A stretch of 64,000 nucleotides of DNA from Macrostomum hystrix. Lineage: Eukaryota > Animalia > Platyhelminthes. Of the stretch, positions 1,500-62,722 are shown piece after piece. Numbering within the stretch: position 1 is the stretch's first letter; each line of letters begins with the position of its first letter. The notes below the pieces were generated by a model, which was not told the DNA's origin, did no database searches, and saw only the letters and a program-made list of their open reading frames with translations. A program made the translations under genes and the position numbers. Location: the NCBI GenBank assembly GCA_950097015.1, contig CATNEN010000001.1, positions 19,964,001 to 20,028,000 of the forward strand, in the 5' to 3' direction.

Positions 1500-1868
1500 A
1501 TGGAGCTCCGAATTAAAAAAACACGAACCACGCGCCCAGTAGAGTTGATGGAGCATAGGAGAATCAGCAAGCAGGTGATGGAGCAGCAGCGCAGAGCCAG
1601 AATTAATGCCAGCTTGGACAGACTCAAAGAGCTGCTGCAGGCCAACAAGGTGATAAAACCGTACCGGATTAAGCGCCTAGAGAAAGCCGACATCCTGGAG
1701 CTGACAGTGGAGCTGCTGCTGAATGGCTCAGCCAAGACTCAATCTACGGCCATGAGCTTCTGCTGCAAGTCTTCGGCCTCATCAACGGTGTCGGCTTTGT
1801 CTACTGACGAAGAATCTAGCCAGTCGATGGACCAGGAGGGAGCCCAGCCTGTGTGGCGTCCTTGGTAA
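1500..1868 (+). CDS. Hairy/Enhancer-of-split (HES)-like bHLH repressor, intronless, no obvious Orange domain
   Basis: HES-type bHLH (RRISKQVMEQQRRARINASLDRLKELL...KRLEKADILELTV) and C-terminal WRPW Groucho-binding tetrapeptide; TATA-like TATAAAATTATAAA ~30-40 bp upstream. Confidence 0.85.
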   Translation: MELRIKKTRTTRPVELMEHRRISKQVMEQQRRARINASLDRLKELLQANKVIKPYRIKRLEKADILELTVELLLNGSAKTQSTAMSFCCKSSASSTVSALSTDEESSQSMDQEGAQPVWRPW

Positions 1869-3146: not shown

Positions 3147-3268
3147 TTTATCGGGTCGGATCCAATTGAAAATCTATCTAGAAATGATTTCCTACACGAC
3201 TGAGTTGGTTTCATGATTTCAAATGATTTCCACTCGAACTTATTAACCTGGAAAGTCACCTAGAAAAT
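3147..3268 (+). repeat. Dispersed ~170-bp repeat, copy A (5'-truncated)
   Basis: TTTATCG.GTCGGAT.CAATTGAAAATC.ATCTAGAAATGATTTCCTACACGACTGAGTTGG shared with 17834-17959 and 26794-26963. Confidence 0.85.
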
Positions 3269-3278
3269 ATTATCTTGA

Positions 3279-4012
3279 AGTAGTAGGGCGAATTATGACA
3301 CTGCCGCATTAGCACTGGGGAGATAGGAAAGCAATGTAAAAGGATAGGAGCGGGGCTTACACAGTGGAGATATGCAGGCCAATCAGGTGGGTTTGTGCAG
3401 GAGCCCATTACTGTGCTTATGACACTGCCGCATTAGCACTGGGGAGATAGGAAAGCAATGTAAAAGGATAGGAGCGGGGCCTACACAGTGGAGATATGCA
3501 GGCCAATCAGGTGGGTTTGTGCAGGAGCCCATTACTGTGCTTATGACACTGCCGCATTAGCACTGGGGAGATAGGAAAGCAATGTAAAATGATAGGAAGG
3601 AAACGAATGCACTGCAGAGATAAGAGAAATGGCTGGCCTATCTCTGTGCATTAGGGATGGATTAACACTGCAGGGATAGGAAGAGAGGCCGGCCTATCTC
3701 TTTGCGCTGGGTGATTAACACAGCAGAGATAGGAGTAGAGGGGGTGTGGGGGTGTGGGGGCGAAGCCCCCACATTTTAATTAGCCTTTAATTTTCTTGGT
3801 CACTCTGCCTCTGACAAACGGAACTCGCTGGCGCTGGCCCATTTAACCTCCAAGCAGCTGCACTGAGAGAACGTTAAATGCTACCTTGATGTCTGTGATG
3901 CAGGTCATTGCAAGGTCCTGCCTTGCTGGTCTATCTCTCTCTTTGCATTGGGGGTGGGTTAACACTGCAGGGATAGGAAGAGAGGGTCCGCCTATCATTT
4001 GGCACTGCAAAT
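3279..4012 (+). repeat. Polinton left TIR, containing ~2.4 copies of a 124-bp internal repeat
   Basis: Reverse complement of 17085-17818 with only a few mismatches, mostly at the inner end; internal units start at ~3293, 3417, 3541. Confidence 0.95.
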
Positions 4013-4289
4013 AGTCCTCGGAAATTCCGTGGGGTCCTAGTGTGTGAACAAACGCCTATGTGTTTGCATAGTGGACTCTGTCGCAGGTAAATCTGTCTGA
4101 GAGGGAGAAAACAGTGAAACCACCATCTGTTTGCAGTGGGTATGGGCAACACTGTAGAGATAGGACAGTGGATGCGTAGCATAGATACATAAATTCAGCC
4201 TAATGTTATTATAAGTTTTCTTAGTATTACAAGTGTATGCGCCCACAGTCTCACCCACCCCATTACGTTAACCCACCCCACTCCGCTGG

Positions 4290-4297
4290 TATATAAG
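4290..4297 (+). promoter_or_regulatory. TATA box upstream of the PC4-like gene
   Basis: TATATAAG ~85 bp upstream of an ATG in strong Kozak context (ACCATGG, 4378-4384). Confidence 0.5.
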
Positions 4298-4380
4298 GGT
4301 GGGGATTTTTTATTATCGTTAAGAGAGGATTTCTGTTAAACTAATAGCCATTTCGTCACGGAAGTTTGATCCATGCTACC

Positions 4381-4974
4381 ATGGATCTTAGCGACGGCTT
4401 CAAAGTTCAAGTACAGGAGTATGAAGGCAATAGATTCATCGCTATCCGACGCTTCTACTCTTCTGACGGGGAGCTGAAGCCTGGAATCCCTGGATTCAAC
4501 TTGAACGTACTCCAATGGGAGAAGCTGAAGCAGCTAAGGCGCCAACTCGTGCAGGCTGCAGTCAACCGACGAAACGTCACTGCCAAGCTGGGCTCCGACA
4601 AGCTCGTAGAAGTCAAGCGAGGAGTCATCTGGCTCAAGCGACTGCCGGAGGACTGCACGGAGGATTTCCTGAGACGGAATTCGATCGAGATGACTCCCCG
4701 TCTGTGGCGAGCGCTGTGGTGCCATGTCGACCGGATCAGTAGTGAGCTGAGAGGAAAGTCACCGGAGTGCGAGTACGAGCTGGACCCTCAGGACATCAAG
4801 ACCGAGCCGGACATCGAGAATCGGGCGGGCCAACACTCTAGTGAGGATGCGGACGACGAGAAGACGCTGCTGATTTCCGAGTCAGACAACCTCCGAACCG
4901 CTTCCAGCTGCAGCCCAACTGTCGACGCCCAAAGCATTCGGCTGCATCCCACAGCAGGACAGCGACCTGTCTAA
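4381..4974 (+). CDS. PC4/Sub1-like ssDNA-binding / transcription coactivator protein, two PC4-like units; C-terminus probably frameshifted (alternative frame open to 5134)
   Basis: KVQVQEYEGNRFIAIRRFYSSDGELKPGIPGFNLNVLQWEKLKQ matches the PC4 core (VSVRDFKGKVLIDIREYW...[22 protein letters not shown]). Confidence 0.85.
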   Translation: MDLSDGFKVQVQEYEGNRFIAIRRFYSSDGELKPGIPGFNLNVLQWEKLKQLRRQLVQAAVNRRNVTAKLGSDKLVEVKRGVIWLKRLPEDCTEDFLRRNSIEMTPRLWRALWCHVDRISSELRGKSPECEYELDPQDIKTEPDIENRAGQHSSEDADDEKTLLISESDNLRTASSCSPTVDAQSIRLHPTAGQRPV

Positions 4975-5415
4975 GGATCCTTACTGGTATCAGGCCCGTG
5001 CGGCTGCGGGTCTCAGTGTCAACTGCTTGATTGGAAGCCGCAAGCGCAAACAGCCATGGCCTCTGCGTAGGAGTGATGCGATCAAGTTTCCGAAGCTGAC
5101 GGATGACTCAGATGAAAACAAGGACAACGAGTGAATTTCCAAGTGACAGTACATGCATCAAATAATTTCTAACTTCATTCATTTGGTCAAATGCGCACTC
5201 AGCTTATTATCTATCCAGCCATATTTCAGCAATATAGGCTACAGAGTAATTTTGCTCTGTGCTTCTCGCAATAGCTAATTTAACTGTCTTTTTTGGCTTT
5301 ATTTCTCGGTATATGTATCAAGACATTTTATAAACTACATTGTGTCAATACAACTTAAGAAAGTTGCTAAAGACAAAAAATAATATTGATTCTGACATCC
5401 TCTTCATGTTGGAAA

Positions 5416-6483
5416 ATGGAAAAGCTTTACTACAACCCCGCTCAGCCGGCCAGTTTCTCAGGTGCATCAAAGTTGCAGCAGCAACTAGGGAAAAATAATG
5501 AGGTGAAATCTAGAAAATACATTGAGCTGTGGTTAACTGAACAGCCCGTGCACACACTGCACAGGTCGGCTAGAAGGCGCTATCCCAGAGCACCAATCAT
5601 AGTGCGATCCATTGACGATCAATGGGAGCTTGACTTGATTGAGATGATTCCATTCGCAAAGTACAATAATGGCTACAAGTACATTCTCACATGCATTGAT
5701 GTGCTGTCTAAATGTGCATGGGCCAGGCCATTGAAAAATAAATCAGCTGCAGAAGTGCAGTCCGCATTCGAGAGCATTCTGAAATACTCAAAACGCCAGC
5801 CTCGCACAGTCCGCACAGATCAGGGGAAAGAGTTTCTTAACACTACTTTTCGCCAATTCTGCATAGAGCGGGGGATTCTGGCTTTCCCAACCAATAGTGA
5901 GCAGAAAGCAGCCATCATTGAGCGATGGAACAGAACTCTGAAGAGCAAAATTTGGCGGTATTTCACGTACAAAAGCACCCTGCACTGGGTTGACGTGCTG
6001 TCCAAGCTAGTGAAGTCCTACAACAGCACTTACCATAGAAGCATAAAAATGGCGCCAACAAGCGTCTGCAAAGAGAATGAATCTGAGGTCTGGATGAACC
6101 TGTACGATGGGAAAGCAATTGAGACAATAGAGAAGCTGAAGAAACCGAAATTCTGCGACAATCAGTTAGTGAGAATTTCCAATGCACCCAGGGTGTTCCG
6201 AAAGGGCTACAAGGCCAACTGGAGCGAGGAAGTGTACACTGTGGTGGCCAGGGCCCCGAAGCACTACCCGTACATGTACAAGATTAGAGACATGAAGGGG
6301 GAAGAGATTCGAGGCCTCTTCCATGAGCATGAGCTGCAGGCTGTTCCGGACTCACAGCGGTTGTATGTGATTGAAAAGATTTTGAAGACTGAGAAACGTC
6401 ATGGAAAAATCCGATATCTTGTGAAGTGGGCCGGCTACAACTCCACCGGGTGGGTGGATGAAAAGGACTTAAGAAAAGTCTAG
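5416..6483 (+). CDS. Polinton retroviral-like (rve) integrase with C-terminal chromodomain
   Basis: DDE triad (WELDL, RTDQGKEF, AAIIERWNRTLK); Polinton-type N-terminus YYNP..PASFSG; chromodomain YVIEKIL...RYLVKWAGY; intact ORF. Confidence 0.95.
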   Translation: MEKLYYNPAQPASFSGASKLQQQLGKNNEVKSRKYIELWLTEQPVHTLHRSARRRYPRAPIIVRSIDDQWELDLIEMIPFAKYNNGYKYILTCIDVLSKCAWARPLKNKSAAEVQSAFESILKYSKRQPRTVRTDQGKEFLNTTFRQFCIERGILAFPTNSEQKAAIIERWNRTLKSKIWRYFTYKSTLHWVDVLSKLVKSYNSTYHRSIKMAPTSVCKENESEVWMNLYDGKAIETIEKLKKPKFCDNQLVRISNAPRVFRKGYKANWSEEVYTVVARAPKHYPYMYKIRDMKGEEIRGLFHEHELQAVPDSQRLYVIEKILKTEKRHGKIRYLVKWAGYNSTGWVDEKDLRKV

Positions 6484-6520
6484 TAGTAAACCTATTTCGG
6501 TGATAAAGGTATTTTCTATT

Positions 6521-7350
6521 ATGAGAAACATTGTTATCAACAGTGAACATGCTGAAGGTACTTCTAGTGACTTTCATTTTCACCTGCCTTCACCTATTTA
6601 CTTGGATCGAAATGTGGACTATGAGGCTGGTCTGGTTGAAATCCATCTGCCTGTTGCATGGTTCAATCTTGACGAACCTTACTGCATCACTGTCTCAGTT
6701 GGAAGAGAGCACGAGGCCCTGGTTCTTCAACCTGGACGCTTTGCTAGAGTGGAGGAGCTGGTGGAGTGCCTGAATGAGCTGCTGACCAACTCTGAGTCTC
6801 TGTTCTTTGATGCGAGAAGCGACAGAGATGCTGAAATGGAGGCAGACAAATCGGGTCTGCTGGGGCGGCGTGGTAGTGCAAGAGAGTTCGCTATAAAATT
6901 TGAAATATGCAACTCAAGAACTGTTGTGCAAAACAGTACCGCGGAAGCAGAGCTGTTTCTTCCTCCTAACAAAATTCTGCAGTGGCTTGGATTCGGAAGT
7001 CAAGCAGTTACGATCCGACCTGGTCGCTTTGTGTCAAAGCATTACATTGGCTGCCCACGCACCAGCTAAATAATGTCCACTGCAGCATTGTTGAATCAAC
7101 TAACTGCAACTGCAGCTCCCTGCTGAGAACTGTTAGCATGAATTCTGAAATTGAATGGGGTTACTATCTGAGCAAAGTGTTTAAGAAAACGACATTCTTT
7201 CCGATTCAGAGAGTCAATTTCCTACAAAGTATTCGAATTCAACTGCGAGACATTTTTGACTGCACATTTATCGCGCAGACTTGCAGTCCTGTTTTGCTGA
7301 CCGTTCAGATTCGCGAAAAAAAATTCAATGAATTATCAGCAGCTGATTAG
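6521..7350 (+). pseudogene. Minor capsid (penton, PX-like), frameshifted at ~7063
   Basis: SDFHFHLPSPIYL...YEAGLVEIHLP..WFN motif; a single ORF in the second copy (56881-57690), split by a 1-nt deletion here. Confidence 0.8.
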
Positions 7351-7640
7351 GCAATACTCGGGAGCTCAAACAGGAGCTCAAAAGTCAGTACTTTATGGCT
7401 GCGGGAGTTCTCCAGGGCTTATGACGTACCAGCCTCCACCAGATGCTTCATCATCATCATTAACAGGGCTGATCAATAGCAGCCGTGGCAAAACAAAAAG
7501 TCCTAAGAAATCGAAACGAAAGCAGAAAAAAAATGAAAGAAGAATCAACTAGCCGGAACACTAGTCGCAAGAGAGGAAGGAAGACAAAGACTGGCAAGAA
7601 AAAGCTTAAGAAAAGGACTGACAAGAAAAGGAAAGCAACC
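7328..7640 (+). pseudogene. Basic Lys/Arg-rich core-like protein; frameshift in an A-run and 3' end deleted
   Basis: MNYQQLIRQYSGAQT...LYGCG plus K/R-rich tail; homologous to intact 57687-58070. Confidence 0.65.
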
Positions 7641-8587
7641 AGCGAATCGTCTCTGGGGGTGACCAGCTGTACCCGTACCATGCCTACTTCAAAGCACTGA
7701 TGGGCTCATCCGATGCCCAGCAACTCAAATTTCACCCTGCCGGTTTCTTGGAACCCGACTCAGCTGATGAGGACCACACTGAGAACCACAGGACCTCCCA
7801 ATGGAGGGAATATGTGGGACCACTCCTTAGCGACATTTTCCAGTGCCCTGTGTTTCTGCTGAACAATTTGCACCTGCACATCAAACTGGTGCCCAGTGAC
7901 GGAGCATTTGGAATCAGAGCTCCAGCCGCCAACAACACCGCCTACAGGATGGAAATATCGCACTGCATCCTCTATCTCCGCCGAGTCAAAGTTCTGCCCC
8001 ACATCAGCTTGGCTCACGAGCAGGGGCTGGCTAATCAGAATGCGCTCTACCCAATTGAGCGAACTGAAATGCAAAACTTCATCCTGCCCCAGGGAATTCA
8101 GTCAAAAAATATTGAAGGATTCACGCACGGAAAGCTCCCGAAATTCATCATGCTGGCCTTCGTCAACCACCGAGCCTTCAATGGGCACCATCATTCCAGC
8201 CCGTTCCAGTTCCAAAACTTCAACCTGAGTCAGCTTGCTCTCAAGAAAGGGGGTGAATCCATGTGCCACGGGGCATTTACACCTGAGAACAATTCGTTTG
8301 TCAGAGAATATTTGCACTACCTGAAAAGCTGTCAATCTGCGAGCCACACCAACTCGGTTCCATCGATTCCCTACCAGCTCTTCTCGAACGAGAACACTGT
8401 GTTCGCATTCGATCTGACACCCGAGGGAGCGGCTCTGTGGTACGGGCAGAAGGAGGGAAACCTGCGGCTGGAGATTCGGTTCCGACAGGCCTTGGATGAA
8501 GCCGTGTCCCTGATTGTCATGTGTGTGTATGACTCACTGATTGAGGTCACCAAGCACAGGGAGCTATTGCTGGACTATTCATCTTAA
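7641..8587 (+). pseudogene. Major capsid protein (double jelly-roll, PY), N-terminally deleted
   Basis: Near-identical to the C-terminal part of 58074-59357 (GKLPKFIMLAFV..AFNG...SPFQFQNFNLS, VFAFDLTP, GNLRLEIRF); first ~110 codons missing. Confidence 0.9.
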
Positions 8588-9132
8588 TGAAAGTTGATAT
8601 GGATGCCCTTCAGCTGCGTTCTCTTGCTAGATCCTTCCTGCCCAGCAATCGAATCTTGATAATCACCCTTTGCTTAAAGCAAAAGACCTGGATAATAAAC
8701 TGGGATGAAGGAAGAATGCGTGAGAAAATTCCCAATCACAACAGAATCAGCAGCTTCTTCTTGATAAAACACAGCGTCTCGTTTGGACACTGGGTTGCAT
8801 GTTTTGTTGGCAATGGAAATGTAGTTGAATTATTTGATTCTCTCGGTTGGAATGCACAGACTCTGAGTGCCATCCACCATTTTTTTGCTAATAAATTCAA
8901 GTTTCCTTTCCGCATGCTTTGCAATGTTAACCGAATCCAATGCAGTCAGTCGGACAAGTGCGGACTTTTCTGTCTCTATTTTGCATATCAAAGATTTCTT
9001 TTGAAGCGATCATTCGAATGGATTCTGCGAAATCTACACGTGAAAGAAAACTGCCCGTTGAATGACAGAATGCTTTGTCAGTTTGAAGCCAGCTTAAGAA
9101 AAAGAGGTTTATGGCGAAAAAGAAATAGTTGA
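8587..9132 (+). CDS. Adenain-like cysteine maturation protease
   Basis: Catalytic H/D/Q/C motifs GHWVA, ELFDSLG, RIQCSQSDKCGLFCLYF; position between capsid and ATPase. Confidence 0.92.
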   Translation: MKVDMDALQLRSLARSFLPSNRILIITLCLKQKTWIINWDEGRMREKIPNHNRISSFFLIKHSVSFGHWVACFVGNGNVVELFDSLGWNAQTLSAIHHFFANKFKFPFRMLCNVNRIQCSQSDKCGLFCLYFAYQRFLLKRSFEWILRNLHVKENCPLNDRMLCQFEASLRKRGLWRKRNS

Positions 9133-9149
9133 AATAAAGCCTAAGTGAG

Positions 9150-9803
9150 ATGGAGTCAGAAAGAGTGTACTATGATGTCCGCCTGCGACAGGGCAGCTGC
9201 ATGATGGTCTGCGGACCCACCAATGCTGGAAAGACAACCTTCGTGAAGCATCTAATACAGTACAGGGATGTATTATTCGACATCCAGCCTGGGAGAGTGC
9301 TCTGGTACTATGGAATCGCACAGCCAGCGCATGCTGAGTTGAGCAGTCTTGGTGTGCAATTGTATCAGGGATTACCCACTAACTTTGAGAGCTCATTGAT
9401 GAGCAATGCTCTGGTCATTTTTGATGACATGATTGATGAAACTTCTAACTCTGCCTCAATGCGAAATATTTTCACTGGACTCGCCCATCACCTGCCATGC
9501 TTTCTTGTAATGCTCACTCAGAATATGTTTTTCAAGGGCAAGGAGTTGCGGACCATGAGCTTGAACGCGATGTACTATGTGATCCTAAAAAACCCCAGAG
9601 ACCAGCTGCAGATCGCTGCATTGGGCAGGCAGTGCTTTCCAGAGAAGCCTGGCTTCCTGCTTGAGGTCTTCAAGCATGTCACAGCGCAGGGCAGGGGGAG
9701 CTACCTGTTTCTGGACTTTCACCCTTGCACTCCCGATGAGCTGCGAGTGCGAGCCAGAATTCTGCCCAATCAGGCCACATCTGGTTTATGCTTAAGAATA
9801 TAG
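9150..9803 (+). CDS. A32/FtsK-like DNA packaging ATPase
   Basis: Walker A GPTNAGKT, Walker B LVIFDD, LTQNMF, RTMSLNAMY...KNPRD, YLFLD; last few codons shifted versus copy 2. Confidence 0.95.
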   Translation: MESERVYYDVRLRQGSCMMVCGPTNAGKTTFVKHLIQYRDVLFDIQPGRVLWYYGIAQPAHAELSSLGVQLYQGLPTNFESSLMSNALVIFDDMIDETSNSASMRNIFTGLAHHLPCFLVMLTQNMFFKGKELRTMSLNAMYYVILKNPRDQLQIAALGRQCFPEKPGFLLEVFKHVTAQGRGSYLFLDFHPCTPDELRVRARILPNQATSGLCLRI

Positions 9804-9838
9804 GTTGAGAAATGCTATTAGCCTGAATTATTGCGACT

Positions 9839-10162
9839 ATGGAAGTGTTCGAAGCTCATCAAAGTTTATTTGAAGTCCTTGCCTCACACAAATATACAAT
9901 TAGCCTCAAGCGCACAATAATACAGCTGAGTCCGAAAGAAGCTTGCACTTTTCTTGTCGAGGCCTGCCACAACCTATTGGAAGAGAATTTGCCATTTTCT
10001 CTTGTTGAAAAGACAGCGCTATTGAAATCTAAAAATATAATCCGCAAGATTGCCCGGCAAAGAAAACAGAGTGACTTACTCAAAGCTTCTTTTATCAGAA
10101 TCCTCCCCATTCTGCTGAAACTTGTGAAAAAGAAGAGGAAAAGAGATGCACAAATTCAATGA
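9839..10162 (+). CDS. Conserved small Polinton/Maverick protein
   Basis: LVEACHNLLEENLPFS...K..IIRKIA motif recalled from Maverick conserved ORFs; homolog at 60606-60911. Confidence 0.65.
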   Translation: MEVFEAHQSLFEVLASHKYTISLKRTIIQLSPKEACTFLVEACHNLLEENLPFSLVEKTALLKSKNIIRKIARQRKQSDLLKASFIRILPILLKLVKKKRKRDAQIQ

Positions 10163-10823
10163 GATGGTTCTGATCTCAAGGTCCGAGTATGAAATGCTGA
10201 GGAGGAGTGCCAAGCCCATTGAGTCTGTGAGTGACACGGCCATAAAGCAGGCACAGATGAAATGCGATGATATCCTGTTGGCCCAAGACTGCCCAGATGA
10301 TTTGAAGACAGCCCTGTACCAGAGTGCAATGCAAAGCTTGCTGGCAAAGCGAAAGCAGACAGGAAAGGAAGCTGCATCAGAAGAGAAGAAAGCGAAGTTG
10401 ATGAAGGCTGAGATGCCTCAAAGAAGCTGGGAGGAAAAGATCTGCCAGTCAGTGCCACAGAAGCTCAAACCGAGGGCTCGGAGTCTATGGGCCATCCTAT
10501 CTGACAGCCAGTCTGCTATCCGGGTGTCCGATAATGGAGAGGTGAACATTTCTGGGAACTCGATTCCTAACTCAAACATTGTCGATTTGATTCTGCACAC
10601 AGTGAAGGACTCAAAAAGTTCTGGTCAGCCTGTTGGATGGCCCGCTTTCAGTGACTTGCTTCGCCAAAAAAATCTCAATGTGCCTATGTCAGCTGTTGGA
10701 AAATCTGTACATCAAGAAATTTTTGATACAATTGAAGATGCACAGCCTTCACTCAAAGGATTGGGCAACAGGTCTGCATGGCTGAGGTTGAACAGGGGGA
10801 GAAAACAGTATTTAAGAAAGTAA
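10146..10823 (+). CDS. Conserved Polinton/Maverick protein of unknown function
   Basis: GEV.ISG..IPNSNIVDLI...P.GW..F...L...NVP motif; C-terminal LKGLG putative protease site; homolog at 60913-61601. Confidence 0.7.
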   Translation: MHKFNEMVLISRSEYEMLRRSAKPIESVSDTAIKQAQMKCDDILLAQDCPDDLKTALYQSAMQSLLAKRKQTGKEAASEEKKAKLMKAEMPQRSWEEKICQSVPQKLKPRARSLWAILSDSQSAIRVSDNGEVNISGNSIPNSNIVDLILHTVKDSKSSGQPVGWPAFSDLLRQKNLNVPMSAVGKSVHQEIFDTIEDAQPSLKGLGNRSAWLRLNRGRKQYLRK

Positions 10824-10864
10824 CGATCATCGAATTATGCCGGTTTCGAGGCACTCGCTTGAGC

Positions 10865-11716
10865 ATGAACTACATAGACATTCAGGGCTTCCCGTGCGAT
10901 GGAGAGAAGGATGACTTCATCGTGAAGGAGTTGGCGATCCTTGAAGTCAGGAAAGGAAGCTATCACCTTTCACACCACGTGTACGCTCCACCGTATGATT
11001 GGCAGAGAGTTTCACCTGACATGCGAATGTACTACAAACAGCTTTCGAAAAATCTACATAAATTCAAGTGGACCGATGGAACCCGGCCATATTTGCAATT
11101 AGCTGACGACATTGTGAGCATTGGTAGCGGCGTCAACTGGACAAGCGGAGAGAAAAAATCGATTTTTCTAACTGAGTTGTTGGGCAGACTGGTCTACAAC
11201 TTAGACGATTTGGTCTCACATTCTAACAAAGACTCTGATACCGCATGTGCAGTGAGCAACTCATTGCTGTACTACAGCTGGCTGAAACCAACAGCTTGCA
11301 TCAACTTAAGAAGCGACAAGTGCTCATGGCATAGAAGCTCAAGCAATTGCAGTAGCAGCAGCAGCCAGACTTGCAATCAGAATGATGATCAAAGGCGCTG
11401 CAACCTTGAGAATCACCAACCTGGTTGGTGGAGTGGATCTGAGACTGACTGGAGGCAGAGGCGCCCAGCTTCCTCTAAGGGAGCTGGCTCTCAGCATGGC
11501 TTATGTGATCTACCGACCCGTGTGGCCCAGAGAGCTCATCAAGCAGATGCGGAATCCCAGAGTTACCCTACTGCTCTACCCTACTGGGCAACTGAGCATC
11601 TGTGGCGCAAAGAGCTACGCCGACTCGGTCAGGGCTGCCCGGCGCTTCGTCGCTATGCTGCATCGCCGAGTGCCGGCTCAGCTGCTGCCTCGTCAAGCTT
11701 TCGGTGTGAGGATTAA
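10865..11716 (+). CDS. DEDD/DnaQ-like nuclease-fold protein; C-terminal extension overlaps the TBP-like gene
   Basis: YIDIQGF...FIVKELAI...APPY....H...W..G..PY pattern typical of Maverick DEDD-like ORFs; ExoI motif reads DxQ rather than DxE. Confidence 0.65.
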   Translation: MNYIDIQGFPCDGEKDDFIVKELAILEVRKGSYHLSHHVYAPPYDWQRVSPDMRMYYKQLSKNLHKFKWTDGTRPYLQLADDIVSIGSGVNWTSGEKKSIFLTELLGRLVYNLDDLVSHSNKDSDTACAVSNSLLYYSWLKPTACINLRSDKCSWHRSSSNCSSSSSQTCNQNDDQRRCNLENHQPGWWSGSETDWRQRRPASSKGAGSQHGLCDLPTRVAQRAHQADAESQSYPTALPYWATEHLWRKELRRLGQGCPALRRYAASPSAGSAAASSSFRCED

Positions 11717-11957
11717 GACTATCACTGCGCATGGAAAACTTGCAATTCAAAATGTGCTAAATCTAACAAGTTTGTCACATCTGCTACCAAATGCTGAATA
11801 TGAACCCGAATCATTTTCTGCTTTAATTTTCAAATTACGATTTTGCAAGTGTCTGCTTTTTCACAGTGGCTCATTTGTTCTAAGCGGTGCTCGATCTTTG
11901 AATCAGCTACGAACCGACAGCATCCGTCTGCGCGAATTAGTTTTTTCTCTATTATAA
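11382..11957 (+). CDS. TATA-binding protein (TBP)-like protein encoded by the Polinton
   Basis: Two TBP repeats: ITNLVGGVDL...MRNPRVTLLLYPTGQLSICGAKS..DSVRAARRF and NAEYEPESFSALIFKL...LLFHSGSFVLSGARS (cf. TBP [34 protein letters not shown] / YEPELFPGLIY...LLIFVSGKVVLTGAK). Confidence 0.9.
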   Translation: MMIKGAATLRITNLVGGVDLRLTGGRGAQLPLRELALSMAYVIYRPVWPRELIKQMRNPRVTLLLYPTGQLSICGAKSYADSVRAARRFVAMLHRRVPAQLLPRQAFGVRIKTITAHGKLAIQNVLNLTSLSHLLPNAEYEPESFSALIFKLRFCKCLLFHSGSFVLSGARSLNQLRTDSIRLRELVFSLL

Positions 11958-12636
11958 AATATAATCGGAAAATAATTTATCACGCACTTTGTTTGTCGCC
12001 ATACGGTTGACAAAAACAACGTTAACTGGAGCTCAAACTTCTTCAAGATGTATTTATTACATTTATTATCCTCAACAAGTTGAATATGAAACAAAAAGAT
12101 TGAAAACCCAACCGTAATGTAACCGAACATGAAATTAATAAAAAAACATTTTAATACACAATTAAAGAAGCAAATGACGTTGAAAATGAGAAACCCCGGA
12201 TGCAAACATTTAGCCCATACTGAAAAAAAAACTGCCTATGACAACGCAGATAAAAAAAGCAACTAATTTGCATCCTTATCGAGATGAGGAAGGATGATCA
12301 CTAAGTTGATTTTACTTTAACGAGAGAATTAAAATTGTTACAGAGAAACGAGATTTTAATTAAAAAAATTAAAAATTAAAAAATAAGTTCAATTTATTTG
12401 TATCACGCGTTCTTCAAATGGAAACATTTGAAACAATTACTATTCAGATGCAACGCTGGCATGAATGAAAAAAGTAGTATTAGTAGTCTCCGAAACAAGA
12501 TCCAACATACTGAGCATGCTAGCAAATCTGAGCATTCCAGAAACAGAAAACTGTTTAAAATTTAAAAGTAAAAACGACAATTAAAAAAGCAACAATTGTC
12601 CACGACAACTTCTAGCCGTCACTACTTTTTATGAAG

Positions 12637-15600
12637 TTAACCAAACCTGATGCGCTTCTGCTGGCCATGGAAATCCTGGGTCAGAGCATAGTGGCCATAG
12701 GGAAGACTTCGATTGCTGCTCAGCCATACTCGCTTGTCTTCCCAAACTGAGAGGCTTCGCTTCTCCAATACTGATGTGTAAACGCTGTGCTTCTTTGAGA
12801 CAATTGTGGTCATGGCAACCGTCTGCTCCTGTTTCGAATTGAGCGCGGCAGCGTAGTCCGCATGAGTGATTTGAAGCTTCACAACAGATTGTTTCACGCC
12901 CTTGGCAGTTTTTTTGGCTTTCGCAGTTGAACTCTCAGCGGGAAGAAATGAATACAGCTTTGGCCGCAGCAGGACCCATTCTTGGTAGGTACCACCGCAG
13001 GATTCATCTTTGACGCAGCCAAGCTTGCCTTTCAGTTCCTCGGAGTAGTGCGGATGGTCTCGGGGATAGTTCGACGAATCAAGGATATTTTCCTCTCTGA
13101 GCTTCGGGATCACATGCGATGTGAGCTCGTGATTTCTGAAGGCGAGAAAAACGAGTCCGTGTCGCCACCGCATACCATCATGTCCTTGGAGCCGTCTGGT
13201 TCACAGAAAAGCGGCCGGAGCTTATCATACAGCAGGCTGTACATGCACATCTTCGACAAGTCGAGCACTGCCTGGCCGACGAAAATGGCCTTGTCAAGCT
13301 TTACTTTGTCTTTCCTGAACTGAAAGATGGATAGATTTTCATTTACAATAAAAAATCCGGTGCAATTTGGTCGAGAGGAATAAGTTTCAACTTGAGTAGC
13401 GCTTGTGTAGATGCGCACATCACACCGCTTGCGCACGTTCTCCATCGTCTTTCCGAACAAAGAATTGTTCTTTAGTTTGTAGAAATCCTTGCTAAAATCG
13501 GATGTTGCAAGTGCCCTCTTGCTATTATTGCTTGCAATGTACGAAGCAAATATTTTCTTCTGGTTGAATTCAATCATCTTGAGAATTGACTTGATCTTCA
13601 TTCCGTGCTGCAGGTAGAAGCGCAAGATGGTGCTGTGGACAATATAGCCATCCTTGTCCGAACAGGTCAGCAGAAGTTTCTCTGTTGCAGAGAACTTAAA
13701 ATCGACATTGCCTGAGCGCTGCTCCGCGATTTGCTTCCACAATTCCAGCATAAACGGTGAAAACTGGTCAACCTGCGGCTTAGATTTCCTTGGCGCAAAA
13801 GGTAATTCCTCTGTCACATCATGAATATCGGCTGGATATTCAAGGTCAACCTGCACGAGATAGGCTACTTCAGCTTCAGGATCGAGAGATATGAACTTTT
13901 TGGCGTCCCAAGACTGCAGTTCCTTTTCTGTCACCCACCTGAATCCGCTGCATGGAAGCGATTGAGAAAGTGCGTGTCCGTACAAGTTGTTCATGTCAAT
14001 CGGCATGAGACTCACGCAGTCCTGCTGCTCATCATAGTCAGGCAAACTTTGGTTGTTTGCTTTAACATGGTGCACATTAACGAAAGACATGCCACCTCTA
14101 ATGCCTTGTTCGAATAAATGGTACATGTCAGGGTCTGTTAGCTGTTCGAGCACAACACCAGTTGATTTGAGAGCAGAGTCGTAAGACAGACCAGGTGTAG
14201 TTAGATAGTGCACTGGATCGAGCCCATCTTCAGATAGACTGGCGTGACGAAATGCCTCAAAAATGTCTGCTAACTGGCGCACATCCATTTCCAGGTAGGC
14301 TAGCATGTAGTCTCGCAGACTACGACATTCGAATGCGGCCCATGCTGCCTTTGCTCGATGGTATTCCTCATCAGAAATCGCACAGTCGGTAAGACGGTTG
14401 AAAAATGCATTTTTCGGTGGCAGACTAGTCTGTTCAAGAATGTTGAACTCGGTCAGGAAATCATACGGAAAGACTCCCTTTTGGCGAATAATGTCTTTTG
14501 AAAGCAGAGGCCTAGACTCTAGCAGCTGCAGAGTCAGTTTACAGTCGTTCTCTGAAAGATTGGAAAACAAATTTGCCAAACTTCCCTTTAGAAAGCAGAG
14601 AATCGATGAACTGAATGGTAAACATTAGTGGCAGTGTCTTCCCGTTTTTTGTGTAGGTGCCAACAGGAAACTCCACCCGAAGTGATAGATAGCGCTCCGA
14701 AGTCTGTGGGACAACATTGAGTTTCCAATTTGGCATGCTACCAAGTGCGGTAGAAAGAAGAAGATGCAAATCGTAACCGCCCAAATTGTGAAAAATGACA
14801 GGCAAAAACCTGCGACGAAGCTGAGCCCGCATGTTGCACTCCTGGCACGCGGCTCCTTTGAACTGCCCCGTCAGGTGATCATGGTCAAAATGTTTGTCAG
14901 CGGAACTGCTGAACTCAGATTGACAGTTGTGGCATGATGTGGCGTCATTGAAATCTTTCATGTCCGTTAGAGAAGATTTATCCGCTGCTTGGTGACTGTG
15001 CACCCGGTTCCACTGAAAGATTTCCCTGGAAAGCTTTTCAAGGGAACTGAGAAAAGCAAGGATGCACTCCTTGGGATCAGCATTGCAAAATGATTGGTAC
15101 ATGTCTGCTTTAGGACGAAGTTCAGGCCCCTTCATGTACGCTCTGGAAACCACTAAGTAGGCTGCTGCACATGGCTCATGTTGAGCGATCAGATCGGCAG
15201 AGTCTGGTTTTTGTTTCAAAATGGCTTCCAGGTCGGCATAGGTCACAAATGGTGGACTGATTGTCTTCTGAAATTCCTTGAACTTGATTTCGTTTGCTCC
15301 AGGAACAGGAAGGACTTCCTTGATGGGATTTTCAGAAGCGATTTGGCATTCTCTGCTGTGCTCTAGAAGTCTCTCGCTGCAGTAGAATGAGGTCAAGCAT
15401 CTGGTGCACCACTTTCTCATGGCAAGGCCGGCGCGGCTGTTCATCAGCCTGTCAAAGTTATTAATTGCACACCAGTGCTCTAATCCATAGCTGCCGCTGA
15501 CCAACAGAAGCATTAGATGAGTTCGACCTCCTGGCTCATGCTTGAGACGACGGAGCAAGCTCACGTTACCTCGCTGCCATAGAAATGCAGAAATGCAAAT

Positions 15601-16326
15601 TCCTGGATTGCTAGACTCAACGAGATCAATGTCAGCGACACTGACGGGCATGGAGATTCCAGCGAAGTCAAGCTCGTTCAATCATTCATCGTAAGACGAC
15701 AGTCTGCCAGGCGATTTTTTTATCTTTGGATCGGCACTGTGCAATGCGGCAAGACAGGCGTACATGAAGCAGTCGTTGCCGGTACTTGGCGGATTGACGA
15801 CAGCTTTCTTGTTTTTCAGACTGGCTGGGAGGTTAAATCTGGATGTTCTACCCTGGCGGAATCGAATCGGATTGTACCTAGCTAGATGTATATCCAGGAA
15901 GTTTATCTGAGTTAGTGTCCAACCACTACCATTCGTGTTCAACATGCTAACACTCTCACTTCTGGGTGCCCTTGGTCTAATAATGCCATTGATCACCTGA
16001 CTCAGTACATTGGACCGTTGCTTAGCAGCGACCACCTCAGTAGCCTGTTGCTTTGCCGCAGCCATAACTAATCGGCGGAAAGAGCGCGCTGCTTCTTCGT
16101 TGCCAGGCAGCAGCTGATGCCCGCGGTGCCGATTGATCTTGGAGTTTTTTGAGCATTTGCCAAGTCCACGGAAAGGATCTATTTCGGAGCACTGCCAGCA
16201 GACTGTCCATCTTGAAAGATTGGTGCATCTTGAATGCCGGTCGGCCTGCAGTCCTCCTTGCTTGCACTTCTTGCAGTCAGTGCACACCTCATAGTGCCAA
16301 GTGGATGCCATTATATTTATTTTCAA
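12637..16326 (-). pseudogene. Protein-primed family B DNA polymerase (pPolB) with vOTU-like and HNH/EndoVII-like domains; one in-frame stop (15682-15684) and two frameshifts (~14580, ~13145)
   Basis: GSGW, AVVNP...NDCF, DHDHLTGQFKGAACQECN, VIFHNLGGYD, FIDS, KGVFPY, GIRGGMS, DMNNLYG, KLKNNSLFGKTMENVRKR, GDTDS, LRPKLYS, AKGV, DKR, LPYGH. Confidence 0.95.
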
Positions 16327-16914
16327 AAATTAATTTTTGCTTGTTAAACTAGACTAATAAATCGCAGCAGAAGCGTTGGATTTGGGTGCTTATGTACCCA
16401 GACCACTGCCCTGGTTTGCAATACAGACCCATTTCCCATGCAGCATTTTGATCAACGGTCAGCGTTATCTATTCCCGGCTTCCATATTATTGAGCGGTCA
16501 GTGTGAGCATGGGGTTTGTGGATTTTATGACTGTCTCGCGCAGACCTCGACCACTAATTCAGTTTACAACTTAATTGGGGCGCACAAGCAGGTAGGCAAC
16601 CACGGCTGAACCTAGCAACAGCTCCTTAACTTGGAGGTGTGGGCTTATTGTTCAGTTTCCTTTTCACAAATAGCAGGCCTTGTTTTCAATTAGGCTAAAT
16701 AGATCCAACCTTATGCAGAAGCGTAGCAAATGCTATTTGTTAAGAATTCGCGAACAAATGCATAATAGAGATTAGTAAAAACTTTGCAGCACTATTTCCA
16801 ATAGCTTTTGTGAGCATATTCTACCCACTCTGTTCACTTTTTCTCTGAATACGACCCATATATTCCCAGTGACAATAAGTTATGTTAGTCTGCCTCCCTT
16901 CACTCTTTAATATC

Positions 16915-17035
16915 TCTGCAAGTGCGGCAGTGTCATAGGCACAGCAATGGGCTCCTGCACTTTCTGTGCAAGTGCGGCAGTGTCATAGGCAAAGCAATGG
17001 GCTCCTGCACTTTCTGTGCAAGTGCGGCAGTGTCG
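16915..17035. repeat. 50-bp subterminal tandem repeat related to the TIR-internal repeat
   Basis: AGTGCGGCAGTGTC recurs at 16921, 16971, 17021; shares GCGGCAGTGTCATA..CACAG.AATGGGCTCCTGCAC with the TIR units. Confidence 0.8.
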
Positions 17036-17084
17036 TAACATCCCATACATCTGATTATGATTCGGTAAGCCTTAACCATTTAGC

Positions 17085-17818
17085 ATTTGCTGTGCCAAGT
17101 GATAGGCGGAACCTCTCTTCCTATCCCTGCAGTGTTAACCCACCCCCAATGCAAAGAGAGAGATAGACCAGCAAGGCAGGACCTTGCAATGACCTGTATC
17201 ACAGACATCAAGGTAGCATTTAACGTTCTCTCAGTGCAGCTGCTTGGAGGTTAAATGGGCCAGCGCCAGCGAGTTCCGTTTGTCAGAGGCAGAGTGACCA
17301 AGAAAATTAAAGGCTAATTAAAATGTGGGGGCTTCGCCCCCACACCCCCACACCCCCTCTACTCCTATCTCTGCTGTGTTAATCACCCAGCGCAAAGAGA
17401 TAGGCCGGCCTCTCTTCCTATCCCTGCAGTGTTAATCCATCCCTAATGCACAGAGATAGGCCAGCCATTTCTCTTATCTCTGCAGTGCATTCGTTTCCTT
17501 CCTATCATTTTACATTGCTTTCCTATCTCCCCAGTGCTAATGCGGCAGTGTCATAAGCACAGTAATGGGCTCCTGCACAAACCCACCTGATTGGCCTGCA
17601 TATCTCCACTGTGTAGGCCCCGCTCCTATCCTTTTACATTGCTTTCCTATCTCCCCAGTGCTAATGCGGCAGTGTCATAAGCACAGTAATGGGCTCCTGC
17701 ACAAACCCACCTGATTGGCCTGCATATCTCCACTGTGTAAGCCCCGCTCCTATCCTTTTACATTGCTTTCCTATCTCCCCAGTGCTAATGCGGCAGTGTC
17801 ATAATTCGCCCTACTACT
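17085..17818 (-). repeat. Polinton right TIR
   Basis: Reverse complement of 3279-4012, ends CTACTACT followed by TSD TCTTGA. Confidence 0.95.
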
Positions 17819-17833
17819 TCTTGACTCTGACTA

Positions 17834-17959
17834 TGTCAGTACTATATGGCTGTCGTCGGTGTCCCAATAGATTTGAGCACAGTTTATCGAGTCGGATTCA
17901 ATTGAAAATCAATCTAGAAATGATTTCCTACACGACTGAGTTGGCTTCATGATTTCAAA
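17834..17959 (+). repeat. Dispersed ~170-bp repeat, copy B
   Basis: Matches 26794-26920 and 3147-3225. Confidence 0.85.
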
Positions 17960-19414: not shown

Positions 19415-20702
19415 CACCCGTGTTTACAGCCTTAGAGCCTTTACGATCATGACAGTAACGCCGCCTATTTGGCTCAGCGAACATGATCGATGATCAAAGA
19501 TCATGTTCGCTATAGCCAATTAGGCTTTATAATGTATTTAGATACAGCACTTCCGATGGCTCAAGATATGGCAGCGTTTTAAATAGGGAATTTTTTATAT
19601 AATGGGAAATAGGAACGGAATTTTTCCAGTTAAAGCTAGGTAGTATTAGTAAAAAGGGACGAATTAGAGCTTTGAAAGAATTGTTCTAATAATTTGCTAA
19701 TCATGTTCTAATCATGCAGTAGAAGATGGCAGCTTTTTAAATAGAATATTTAGCTATAAAGTTGATTGCCAATTGCCAAGTATTTGACAGGTTGCTAAAT
19801 GGGTAGATGCATGCCTATCAGTAAAATTGTCTACACACTCTATGAAGAAAGTTATCAGCTATTTTGATAAAAAACACTAAATAGCCTTTGCAATTGATTC
19901 TTTTTTATAATTCAAATATACAACCCATTTAACTGGAATGTTCCATAAATAAGTTTTGAATTGTGGTTTCATTAGGCCTACCATTTACCAAATTTTCCAT
20001 GTGCTACAATTGCTAGGACAGGACACTCGATTAGCTAAAAGTAGTAGGCCTAGCTAAAAAGTTTCAAACTTCTTAGGCATTTGATATAGAAATGCAAGTT
20101 TTATGGAACTTTTTTAATTCAAAAATATCATACTTGCTTTTTAGCTATTAAAGTAACCAAGCATTTCATTTTTAGTATATAAGAAGATGCTATAGTATAG
20201 GCCTATTGTTTTTCCCCACAAAAAATCTTAGCCTTATGATTTTATGCAAATGTATATAAATATATATTCAATGTATTAATTAGCCATGTTGTTTCTTATT
20301 GATACAAAAGTTTATTTAATAGCTAGGCCTAAGTACATAATTATTACTAATTAAGTAATTATTGACTTATTTAATTTTCAAGATTAGAAATTTTTATAAG
20401 CTCAGGTTTATAAAGTAGTTATAAAGTAGCAGGTTTATAAAGTTTTTATACTAGCTATTCCTACTGTTTTTCATTCTTAAAAATATTTAATATATTAGTT
20501 TTGTATAATGCTCTTTTCTTTTATTAATTAGCTACTTAGTAAGAGCTTTAGCCGCCCATTTGAGCCCTTTTAAGTTTAGGGATCAATAGCAAAGCTTTAG
20601 TTTAGAAAAGGCAGTGAAGCTTAAAAAAATAGGGACTTTTTGTGTAAAGCAGCATGGCTTCAGGGCATGCAGCGGAGCTTCAGAGCGGAGCTTCAGGGCA
20701 GG
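19415..20702 (+). repeat. KDZ element left TIR
   Basis: Reverse complement of 32970-34257, colinear with no net indel (19415 pairs with 34257; 20641 pairs with 33031). Confidence 0.95.
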
Positions 20703-20855
20703 TGGCGGAGCTTCATGGTAGGCAGCCGAGCTTCAGGGCAGGTGGCGGAGCTTTAGGGCAGGTGGCGGAGCTTCATGGTAGGCAGCCGAGCTTCAGGGCA
20801 GGCAGCAGAGCTACAGGGCAGGCAGTGGAGCTTCAGGGTAGGCAGCCGAGCTACA
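20655..20855 (+). repeat. 21-bp subterminal tandem repeat (GGCAGGCAGCGGAGCTTCAG-like), short array
   Basis: About 9 units, inverted relative to 32050-33020. Confidence 0.9.
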
Positions 20856-26427: not shown

Positions 26428-26793
26428 ATACTGCCTTAGGCTCAACTAACTTTAACTCAACTAACTAACTCAATTAACTTTAGGCTCAACAACTAACAAT
26501 TAAGGTAGTTATTAGAATGTAGATAGTGCTTTCAGTGAAAAGAGACCAAGATTTGCAAGCAAATAGTCCTTTTGTTGTTCTGGAGGTGATTCGGAAACAA
26601 AATAAACGCTACACACAATAGTTAGCAAATGATGCATTTTACGATTTTGTTCTGAAAAAACGTTTCTGGCAATTTTAACCCAGTGGGATGACTTTTAACA
26701 TGATGCATGTATTATGTTTCTACATATACAGTATAACAAGCTGTACTCATGCACATATATATTCAAATCTTAAACGGTATCCATTCGTACTAC

Positions 26794-26963
26794 TGTCAGT
26801 AGTATATGGCTGTCGTCGGTGTCCCAATAGATTTGAGCACAGTTTATCGAGTCGGATTCGATTGGAAATCAATCTAGAAACAATTTCCTACACGACTGAG
26901 TTGGTTTCATGATTTCAAATGATCTCAACTCGAACTTATTAACCTGGAATGTCACCTAGAAAA
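26794..26963 (+). repeat. Dispersed ~170-bp repeat, copy C (longest)
   Basis: Spans the sequence of both copy A and copy B. Confidence 0.85.
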
Positions 26964-34670: not shown

Positions 34671-34861
34671 TGTGGACTAAGGCAGAGAGACTGCGACTTA
34701 GAGTTGACGAAGATTTACAGCGATTTATTTATTGACTCACGAGTTAAATAGCAATCAGTGCCAAGGTGTAAAAGTGAGAGAGAAAGGCATGCACGCGGTT
34801 GATGTACATTAGACACCCAGAGAAGTGAACGCATATGTACGATGCATTGCCACACACTACA
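34671..34861 (-). repeat. Gypsy 3' LTR, preceded on the minus strand by PPT GCGTGGGAGGAT (34862-34873)
   Basis: Direct repeat of 39097-39287. Confidence 0.95.
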
Positions 34862-35003
34862 ATCCTCCCACGCAAAGAAAAGAGAAGACTCGAAGGAAAT
34901 AAATAAATTCAAAAAGAATAAAAACGCAGCAAGTGATTGGTGCAACTTAAGCAATATTAAGACAGTCCATGAATGAGTTCAGCGCAGCCATTTAATCAAA
35001 AGT

Positions 35004-39082: not shown

Positions 39083-39094
39083 GCTCTGCTACCA
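39075..39094 (-). promoter_or_regulatory. Primer-binding site complementary to initiator tRNA-Met
   Basis: Minus strand TGGTAGCAGAGCGTGGTTTC, 2 nt inside the 5' LTR. Confidence 0.88.
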
Positions 39095-39096
39095 CT

Positions 39097-56847: not shown

Positions 56848-56880
56848 GTAAACTATGAATATTATATTATTATAAACTCT

Positions 56881-58070: not shown

Positions 58071-58073
58071 ACA

Positions 58074-61638: not shown

Positions 61639-62487
61639 ATGAACTACATAGACATTCAGGGCTTCCCGTGCGACGGAGAGAATGATGACTTCATCGTGAA
61701 GGAGTTGGCGATCCTTGAAGTCAGGAAAGGAAGCTATCACATTTCCCACCATGTGTACGCACCGCCATATGATTGGCAGAGAGTTTCACCTGACATACGA
61801 ACGTACTACAATCAGCTTTCCAAAAATCTACATAAGCTTAAGTGGACCGATGGAACTCGACCATATTTTCAATTAGCTGATGACATTGTGAGCATTGGTA
61901 GCGGCGTCAACTGGACAAGCGGAGAGAAGAAAACTATTTTTCTAACTGAGTTACTTGGCAGACTGGTCTACAATCTAGACGATTTGGGCCCGCCTTTGAG
62001 CGATGAGTCAGACACTGGCTGTGCAATGAAAAATGTTCTACTGTACTACAGCTGGCTGAAGCCAACATTTTGTGTCAACTTAAGAAGCGACAAGTGCTTG
62101 TGGCATAAGAGCTCAAGAGACTGTAGCAGCAGCAACAGCCATATCAACACTCAAAATGAGCAGAGGAGCTGCAACCCTGAGTGTCACCAACCTTGTTGGT
62201 GGAGTGGATCTGAGACTGAATGGAGGCAGGGGCGCCCAGCTTCCTCTAAGGGAGCTGGCTCTGAGCATGGCTCATGTGATTTACCGCCCCGTGTGGCCCA
62301 GAGTGCTCATCAAGCGGATGCGGAATCCCAGAGTCACCCTACTGCTCTATCCCACCGGCCAGCTCAGCATCTGTGGAGCAAAGAGCTACGCCGACTCGGT
62401 CAGGGCTGCCCGGCGCTTCATCGCTATGCTGCATCGCCGAGTGCCGGCTCAACTGCTGCCTCGTCAAGCTTTCTGTGTGAGAATTAA
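61639..62487 (+). CDS. DEDD/DnaQ-like nuclease-fold protein
   Basis: Homolog of 10865-11716. Confidence 0.65.
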   Translation: MNYIDIQGFPCDGENDDFIVKELAILEVRKGSYHISHHVYAPPYDWQRVSPDIRTYYNQLSKNLHKLKWTDGTRPYFQLADDIVSIGSGVNWTSGEKKTIFLTELLGRLVYNLDDLGPPLSDESDTGCAMKNVLLYYSWLKPTFCVNLRSDKCLWHKSSRDCSSSNSHINTQNEQRSCNPECHQPCWWSGSETEWRQGRPASSKGAGSEHGSCDLPPRVAQSAHQADAESQSHPTALSHRPAQHLWSKELRRLGQGCPALHRYAASPSAGSTAASSSFLCEN

Positions 62488-62722
62488 GACTATTACTGCT
62501 AGGGGAAACCTTGAATTATGCGGTGCTTTATCCCTGTCTACTTTAAACAGTATTCTACCCGCTGCGAACTATGAACCTGAATCCTTTTCTGCTTTGATTT
62601 GTAAACTCCGTTTTTGTAAGTGTTTGCTTTTCCATAACGGCTCGTTTGTTCTCAGCGGAGCTCGCTCTCTGAGTCAATTGCGCTCCGATGCTGAGTACCT
62701 TGCAACACTCATCCTTTCTTGA
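62156..62722 (+). CDS. TBP-like protein (second copy)
   Basis: Same two-repeat TBP fold: VTNLVGGVDL...RNPRVTLLLYPTGQLSICGAKS, NYEPESFSALI...LLFHNGSFVLSGARS. Confidence 0.9.
   Translation: MSRGAATLSVTNLVGGVDLRLNGGRGAQLPLRELALSMAHVIYRPVWPRVLIKRMRNPRVTLLLYPTGQLSICGAKSYADSVRAARRFIAMLHRRVPAQLLPRQAFCVRIKTITARGNLELCGALSLSTLNSILPAANYEPESFSALICKLRFCKCLLFHNGSFVLSGARSLSQLRSDAEYLATLILS

Follow-up and report, generated by a model that had tools for sequence, protein, structure and literature searches.

A Maverick-encoded TBP with a remodelled DNA face, and a shared RYTTAAGAA box that it may read, in the flatworm Macrostomum hystrix

The window analysed here is a stretch of 64,000 nucleotides (64 kb) of the Macrostomum hystrix genome, and it carries a Maverick/Polinton element that encodes a TBP-fold protein with a DNA face different from that of other TBPs. 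Most transcription units of this element, the TBP gene included, are preceded by one common box, RYTTAAGAA, which is unchanged between the two copies of the element in the window, and this is what is new here. In our opinion, the balance tips modestly towards a one-protein late-gene switch, in which the viral TBP would read the RYTTAAGAA box and recruit host TFIIB.

The element spans 3279-17818 and is recognised by its terminal inverted repeats and its gene set. Elements of the Maverick/Polinton kind are bounded by long inverted repeats with AGTAGT at the ends, stand between the two halves of a 6-bp target-site duplication, and carry genes for a double jelly-roll major capsid protein and a minor capsid protein. 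Here the repeats are about 735 bp long with AGTAGT ends, the left one (3279..4012) starting with AGTAGT and the right one (17085..17818) being 99.5% identical to it, and the 6-bp target-site copy TCTTGA is found on both sides, at 3273-3278 and 17819-17824. The element encodes the Maverick/Polinton set of integrase, protein-primed polymerase B, ATPase and protease. On the plus strand lie a retroviral-type integrase with a chromodomain (5416..6483; Pfam rve, E 6e-14), an adenovirus-type protease (8587-9132; Pfam E 0.0013, below the curated cut-off) and an A32-type packaging ATPase (9150-9803; Pfam E 0.0045, likewise below the cut-off). The protein-primed DNA polymerase region (12637..16311, minus strand) consists of several separate ORFs (DNA_pol_B_2, E 4e-11). 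A PC4-like coactivator gene (4381..4974, plus strand; Pfam PC4, E 2e-10), which stands behind a consensus TATA box, is a second transcription-related capture by the element. Two further genes are putatively those of the major and minor capsid proteins, a labelling that follows gene order; the capsid candidates had no match in Pfam, PHROG or PDB sequence searches. This element (element 1) has suffered damage: it lacks the start of the putative major capsid gene, its putative minor capsid gene is short, and its polymerase is in pieces. The second copy, at about 56780-62722, is partial.

Directly ahead of the TBP gene there is a conserved ORF, at 10865-11716 (+) and, in the second copy, 61639-62487 (+), without a Pfam or PHROG match. 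Its first 172 codons have a dN/dS of 0.23, and its start, with a DIQGF motif, may point to a DEDD-type nuclease. Its tail, which runs over the first 111 TBP codons, was considered as an overprinted gene and rejected, the frame being unconstrained (dN/dS 3.8).

Several other features of the window deserve a brief description. The flanks of the Maverick, 3147-3267 and 17830-17959, match 26789-26963, which would fit an insertion of the element into a dispersed repeat. About 1.4 kb from its left end a small ORF at 1500-1868 (+) matches Pfam HLH (E 2e-10) and is likely a host gene or exon. An inverted repeat of 1441 bp (98%), with arms 12 kb apart at 19415-20855 and 32817-34257 and ending in a 20-bp tandem array, is possibly another large element with terminal repeats. 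An LTR retrotransposon at 34671-39290 (minus strand) has 194-bp direct repeats at 99% and encodes a 907-aa RT-RNase H-integrase ORF and a zinc-knuckle ORF. Finally, the translations of broken ORFs at 53169-54256 (-) recall, as we assume, a tyrosine-recombinase element; one ORF scanned from this region had no Pfam match.

The TBP-fold gene itself (11382..11957, plus strand) encodes 191 amino acids, that is, the core only, with two repeats and no N-terminal extension. The protein is matched by two Pfam TBP stretches (PF00352, E 4e-24), and a second copy in the partial element (62156..62722, plus strand) has 188 amino acids and is 81% identical. An AlphaFold2 model has a pLDDT of 95.7 and resembles solved TBPs (Foldseek TM 0.76-0.84, Z up to 20.5, 1.7-2.0 A for the best rows). 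Because the model was built from a 103-row alignment consisting mostly of ordinary TBPs, this match is partly by construction, and the model speaks for compatibility with the TBP fold, not for side-chain detail. Compared with cellular TBP (PF00352; yeast 1ytb, human 1cdw and 1c9b), the Maverick protein has the same two-repeat saddle (Z about 20) and shares N69, V71, L114, F190, L205, F207, V213 and the E186/E188 stirrup, but it is only about 25% identical and F99, F116, N159, V161, V122, T124, P191, K120 and K211 are replaced. It is thus a member of the TBP-fold family in which the canonical set of Phe and Asn residues is incomplete.

To locate these changes we used profile alignments of the Maverick TBP to 22 eukaryote-like and 18 archaea-like TBPs, and a residue table of 7 family rows against 95 other TBP-family rows, from which P0039 was omitted as a member of the sister clade described below. 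Yeast numbers of base-contacting residues follow Table 1 of PMC12529657. All motifs quoted in the original prediction lie in the single ORF 11382-11957 (+). The repeat-1 stirrup, Y44-E51 (YRPVWPRE, 11511..11534, +), has Trp48-Pro49-Arg50 for a basic residue, the first Phe and a small residue. In the profile alignments this stirrup is ungapped, with Pro49 at the yeast F99 site, Tyr66 at the F116 site and the invariant Trp48 one residue ahead of Pro49; a shifted register that would put Trp48 on the first Phe was considered, and both profile alignments favour the ungapped one. The repeat-1 strands L63-C74 (11568..11603, +), which open with LLLYPTG (11568-11588), carry Tyr66 for the second Phe and Gln70, Ser72 and Cys74 for yeast K120, V122 and T124. 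In the first strand of repeat 2, IKTITA (11712-11729, +; KTITA at 11715..11729), Thr113 and Thr115 stand for N159 and V161. The repeat-2 stirrup YEPESF-S (11799..11819, +; YEPESF at 11799-11816) keeps Glu141, Glu143 and Phe145 and has Ser146 for P191, and LLFHSG (11853..11870, +) keeps Leu158 and Phe160 (yeast L205 and F207). Hence two of the four intercalating Phe are present (Phe145 and Phe160), while Pro49 and Tyr66 occupy the other two sites.

These replacements are those of a family, not of a single gene. In all seven family rows F99 is Pro (0/95 among the others), F116 is Tyr (4/95), V122 is Ser (1/95), T124 is Cys (2/95), N159 is Thr (3/95) and P191 is Ser (4/95). K120 is Gln or His in 7/7 rows (Gln in 0/95 others), V161 is Thr or Ser, K211 is Ser or Ala, and Q158 and T215 of repeat 2 are likewise substituted in all seven. 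Retained in 7/7 rows are N69 (here Asn13), V71, L114, F190, L205, F207, E186 and E188, so that the TFIIB-contact Glu pair of the C-lobe (Glu141, Glu143) is invariant together with Phe145 and Phe160. On the N-lobe basic patch that serves TFIIA, Mot1, TAF1 and Brf1, R137, K138 and K145 are basic and R90, N91, E93 and R141 are not, by our own mapping; by the same mapping, part of the N-lobe regulator surface of cellular TBP appears changed.

The original prediction, namely that repeat 2 retains both stirrup Glu and both Phe, and that the repeat-1 Phe pair and the second Asn strand are altered, therefore holds in every family row. The outcome that was to speak against it, Phe at the repeat-1 positions, was looked for in the profile alignments and was not found. 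Its description of the remodelling as asymmetric is right for the Phe pairs but too strong for the DNA face as a whole, where repeat 2 is also altered (P191 to Ser, V161 to Thr). Both copies in the window share the changes, as had been stated, except for the last letter of YRPVWPRE: VWPRV or VWPRI stands in copy 2 and in every relative, and Glu51 is a one-base change private to the copy at 11382-11957. Copy 2 also reads LLFHNG. Repeat 1 is 27% identical to other TBPs against 33% for repeat 2, and inside the family conservation is 74% for repeat 1 and 63% for repeat 2; judged by these values, repeat 1 is different from other TBPs yet fixed in the family.

In the collections searched the family is small: 5 matches were obtained with the single protein and 7 with a profile, and of 1.84 billion representatives 5 clusters fall under E 1e-30. 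Macrostomum lignano proteins, at 78-85% identity, are the nearest relatives that bear a name. Their Mlig-type names probably go back to an annotation for which transcript models from RNA-seq were used (PMC5730564), which is a weak hint that the sister copies are transcribed; the gene ids of the family are not mentioned in the supplements of PMC5730564 and PMC12896417. Rows as distant as 54% identity have identical substitutions, and some of these recur in a sister clade (P0039, P0160-P0162) at about 32% identity, which has the motifs YP-x-GQL and RIKT-x-TA in common and His-Pro in place of Trp-Pro. In this sister clade, a metagenome TBP clade that also takes in P0158 and P0163-P0169, the His-Pro at the first Phe site is followed by an arginine-rich insertion. 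In a quick tree (118 rows, SH-aLRT supports, long branches, no bootstrap) the Maverick family and the sister clade join at SH-aLRT 98, and both fall at SH-aLRT 90 among 11 short TBPs, apart from ordinary eukaryotic TBPs. Several of these short TBPs carry Thr at N159 and yet have all four Phe. Hence the replacement of Asn159 by Thr is older than the loss of Phe and is not tied to the RYTTAAGAA box. Viral contigs searched with 7 queries yielded no confirmed related locus, and metagenome scans for related loci found none, one match (L001) having been discarded as a chance match. The haloarchaeal viruses HJTV-2 and HRTV-9 (records MZ334513 and MZ334505) have annotated TBP genes at 27-31% identity in an unrelated setting.

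The TBP gene is under purifying selection. A comparison of the two copies in the window gives a dN/dS of 0.175 over codons 8-111 and of 0.154 over codons 112-176, within the range of other element genes (0.105-0.585, seven regions); the ATPase has 0.24 and the protease 0.29. The synonymous distance between the copies jumps near codon 116, from 0.21 to 1.5, about sevenfold (11715-11957 against 62486-62722). Such a jump suggests recombination inside the gene, through which the 3' part of one copy was probably acquired, with a breakpoint near the repeat junction. Glu141, Glu143, Phe145 and Phe160 persist across the synonymous distance of 1.5.

We turn now to the box. The 64-kb window has 19 matches to YTTAAGAA where 8.8 are expected, a number that none of 100 shuffles reached. 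The two element copies account for 14 of these matches, each of them on the coding strand, and a search of the terminal repeats found none. In element 1, six of eight boxes stand 48-77 nt ahead of a start codon, all on the plus strand. The sequence CTTAAGAA is found 62 nt before the integrase gene (5354..5361), 53 nt before the putative minor capsid gene (6468..6475), 57 nt before the packaging ATPase gene (9093..9100), 48 nt before a 107-aa ORF (9791..9798) and 77 nt before the TBP start codon (11305..11312), and TTTAAGAA stands 54 nt before the ORF at 10865 (10811..10818). A further CTTAAGAA box (7605..7612, +) belongs to the putative major capsid unit, whose gene start is missing in element 1, and the eighth box, at 7180, is 148 nt from a start and is not kept in copy 2. 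The six boxes of copy 2, at 56832, 57975, 59857, 60561, 61583 and 62079 (+), all lie 45-99 nt before a start, and that at 57975, the equivalent of 7605, is 99 nt ahead of the putative major capsid start.

The motif TTAAGAA is common to 7 of 10 upstream segments, or to 6 of 9 without the one segment that was placed by hand after the motif had been seen, and 2000 random draws of ten segments gave 5 at most. A purine directly precedes the box in 13/13 sites. When the six box pairs of the two copies are compared, all 48 bases agree, whereas 38 of 144 flanking bases do not. It should be kept in mind that these box statistics are drawn from two related copies in one window. The box falls in varying reading frames or in non-coding DNA, and among sites reading Leu-Arg-x 5/18 use the box against about 3% expected, all five being ahead of a gene start. 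The genes without a near box (the protease, a 225-aa ORF and the ORF after the minor capsid gene) overlap the stop of the preceding gene and may be second cistrons. A role as 3'-end signal was considered and rejected, as the next start is 45-99 nt away and the previous stop anywhere from -380 to +411.

A second class of candidate promoter is found in the same element. A consensus-type TATA box, GGTATATAAG (4288..4297, +), precedes the PC4 gene, with a TTAAGA variant 29 nt downstream at 4319; a TATA-type box, GGTACATAAG (16389..16398, minus strand), precedes the polymerase region; and TATAAA at 5329 (+) lies 26 nt upstream of the integrase CTTAAGAA box. The pattern GGTAYATAAG, which was spotted by eye, occurs exactly twice in 64 kb against 0.13 expected, before PC4 and the polymerase, and the TATA-type boxes of PC4, polymerase and integrase are all 85-91 nt ahead of the start.

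Based on these observations, the switch that we favour may be pictured as follows. Host TBP would first transcribe PC4, integrase and polymerase as early genes, and a little viral TBP would be made through leak or read-through. It would bind the box about 30 nt ahead of start sites; there repeat 2 would kink the 5' half as in ordinary TBPs, and repeat 1 would grip the 3' half by means of Tyr66 and perhaps Trp48. Together with host TFIIB and RNA polymerase II it would then turn on the particle-building genes, and the box ahead of its own gene would give positive feedback. The element ORFs scanned with Pfam had no TFIIB-like match, unlike most TBP-bearing viruses, which bring their own TFIIB (PMC7221094); no RNA polymerase match was found among the ORFs scanned. 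The two stirrup Glu are the residues by which TBP binds TFIIB (PMC7221094). That the whole would amount to an orthogonal one-protein promoter system, with an altered-specificity TBP, a single kinking Phe pair, self-feedback, partial escape from host N-lobe regulation and a direct TFIIB plug-in, is a bolder proposal, drawn from sequence, to which we would give somewhat less than an even chance.

How could such a protein read the box? Written as the octamer C1-T2-T3-A4-A5-G6-A7-A8, the box departs from TATA at C1 (11/13 sites) and G6. According to PMC1636458, it is the C-terminal repeat of TBP that faces the 5' half of the box and reads it, with Pro191 giving preference to T at position 1; yeast TBP can be retargeted by as few as three substitutions, as in TBPm3, which accepts a new base. 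In the Maverick protein C1 would face the Pro191 to Ser change, and G6 would face Val122 to Ser and Thr124 to Cys, a pairing inferred by two-fold symmetry with the position-3 pocket. That pocket consists of V161, V213, T215 and L205, and G/C is barred at positions 2, 4 and 5 by L205, V161 and V71 (PMC13566119, accessible part; numbers converted from Arabidopsis). A register with G at position 5 fails this structural rule, V71 being kept. However, CTTAAGAA conforms in both orientations to the rule for ordinary TBP (A/T at 2, 4 and 5, no G at 3; PMC13566119, same part), hence host TBP is structurally compatible with the box. Furthermore, the herpesvirus protein ORF24 requires all four Phe, so that a TBP with Pro in the place of the first one might bind DNA weakly or without specificity.

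This brings us to another explanation, that the box is an initiator or a host-factor site and the viral TBP a TRF2-like scaffold that recruits TFIIB with little sequence reading. The distance from TATA to TTAAGA, 29 nt at PC4 and 26 nt at integrase, is an initiator spacing, unlike that of a -30 box, and it counts against the late-gene switch; other box sites have no TATA match above 5/7 at that spacing. The loss of the first Phe, K120 and K211 is in keeping with a scaffold, and TRF2 binds TFIIA and TFIIB and sits near start sites, and it showed no sequence-specific binding (PMC4422821). On the other hand, counted from the box, ATG codons occupy 6/240 positions between +8 and +27 and 1/378 between +30 and the gene start (p 0.016), as would be expected if transcripts begin near +30; this test carries little weight, as the two copies are related and have none of these ATG codons in common. 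Moreover, the substitutions on the DNA face are invariant, not free. We consider this explanation unlikely.

The original prediction also offered a TFIIB decoy, a protein that would damp host transcription by tying up host TFIIB or blocking host TATA promoters, with the box served by host TBP. Indeed the acidic stirrup is invariant while the Phe pair is damaged, and the box is compatible with ordinary TBP. But the remodelled repeat 1 is the better conserved half (74% against 63%), which a pure decoy would not need, and the element, without an RNA polymerase match among its scanned ORFs, likely needs host TFIIB itself. A decoy therefore seems improbable to us.

We regard it as slightly less probable again that the box is a spliced-leader trans-splice acceptor, which would cut a long precursor into mRNAs and would be unrelated to TBP. 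The box is only one base off the host acceptor YTNCAG (PMC8629364, accessible part), and this counts against the switch. Nevertheless, A is fixed in 13/13 sites where the host prefers C, two more A are fixed after AG, and the 15 nt upstream are often purine-rich (pyrimidine share 0.07-0.60).

Very doubtful is the idea that the task of the protein is not transcription but to bend or mark the DNA of the element when it is replicated, integrated or packaged. The rebuilt DNA face would suit it, as would the description of TBP lobes as general nucleic-acid binders (PMC7221094, accessible part), but it leaves the invariant TFIIB-contact Glu pair unexplained, and YTTAAGAA is absent from the terminal repeats. 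As to a decaying passenger copy of a host TBP, several genes of the surrounding element are broken and Glu51 is a private change, but a dN/dS of 0.15-0.18, together with the same substitutions down to 54% identity and partly in the sister clade at about 32%, has already largely refuted it.

We return to the late-gene switch and to the interpretation of the original prediction. Its proposal that specificity has shifted away from TATA while TFIIB is still contacted is strengthened: the substitutions are constant throughout the family, purifying selection acts on the gene, and most genes of the element follow a fixed box that is not the consensus. The label TRF2-like is useful as an analogy only: in both cases there is an aromatic residue other than Phe at the second repeat-1 site, TATA binding is likely lost or changed and TFIIB contact presumably kept (PMC7221094 and PMC4422821). 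As for kinship, the TBPL1 signature is Trp at the second Phe (N.L5.1; PMC7221094, accessible part), whereas the Maverick TBP has Tyr66 in 7/7 rows with F190 kept, and in the quick tree the family stands apart from the sole TRF2-like row (P0019, recognised by its Trp).

From the sequences, the Maverick TBP would work most like the herpes late-gene TBP mimic, built the opposite way. As far as the accessible part of PMC12529657 goes, KSHV ORF24 is likewise a virus-encoded TBP fold, polar at V122 and V161, and it reads its own late non-consensus box with host RNA polymerase II, a likeness that on the Maverick side is one of sequence only. But ORF24 has 752 aa, keeps and needs all four Phe, has no acidic stirrup, makes its own contact with the polymerase and depends on five additional viral factors, whereas the Maverick TBP is a 191-aa core with two Phe and the stirrup kept; the ORF24-type layout of a polymerase-binding N-terminal domain and a DNA-binding C-terminal domain is not found in it. 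The TBPs of large DNA viruses are also viral genes with a diverged regulator surface, and according to PMC7221094 they mostly keep the L5.1 Phe (90%), vary at the stirrup Glu, one of which is kept in about 40%, and come with their own TFIIB. The Maverick TBP reverses this pattern, with the repeat-1 Phe pair lost, the stirrup kept and no TFIIB match among the element ORFs scanned. As for published accounts of a Maverick TBP with a promoter, we found only a TBP abbreviation in a figure legend for the MELD viruses, which have an adintovirus-like PolB and a TBP-labelled gene in a Polinton-type genome (Starrett 2021, PMC8502044 and its preprint; subscription journals were largely uncovered). The accessible MELD virus text (PMC8502044) contains no residue analysis or promoter for that gene.

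Why does this matter? A dedicated TBP with a matching box would make the timing of Maverick genes directly accessible, through a single small protein and a site of 8 bases. A further question is whether DNA can be read and bent by a TBP fold that has Pro and Tyr where a Phe pair should be, when the herpes mimic cannot do without any of its four Phe. A natural TBP-box pair that uses host TFIIB could also serve as an orthogonal transcription part. To our knowledge, little is known about gene timing in animal Mavericks or about whether they behave as viruses. If the bolder proposal above is true, this would be, among viral early-to-late switches that use TBP, the smallest, a mirror image of ORF24 and of the large-virus TBPs, and a sign of a timed virus programme in animal Mavericks.
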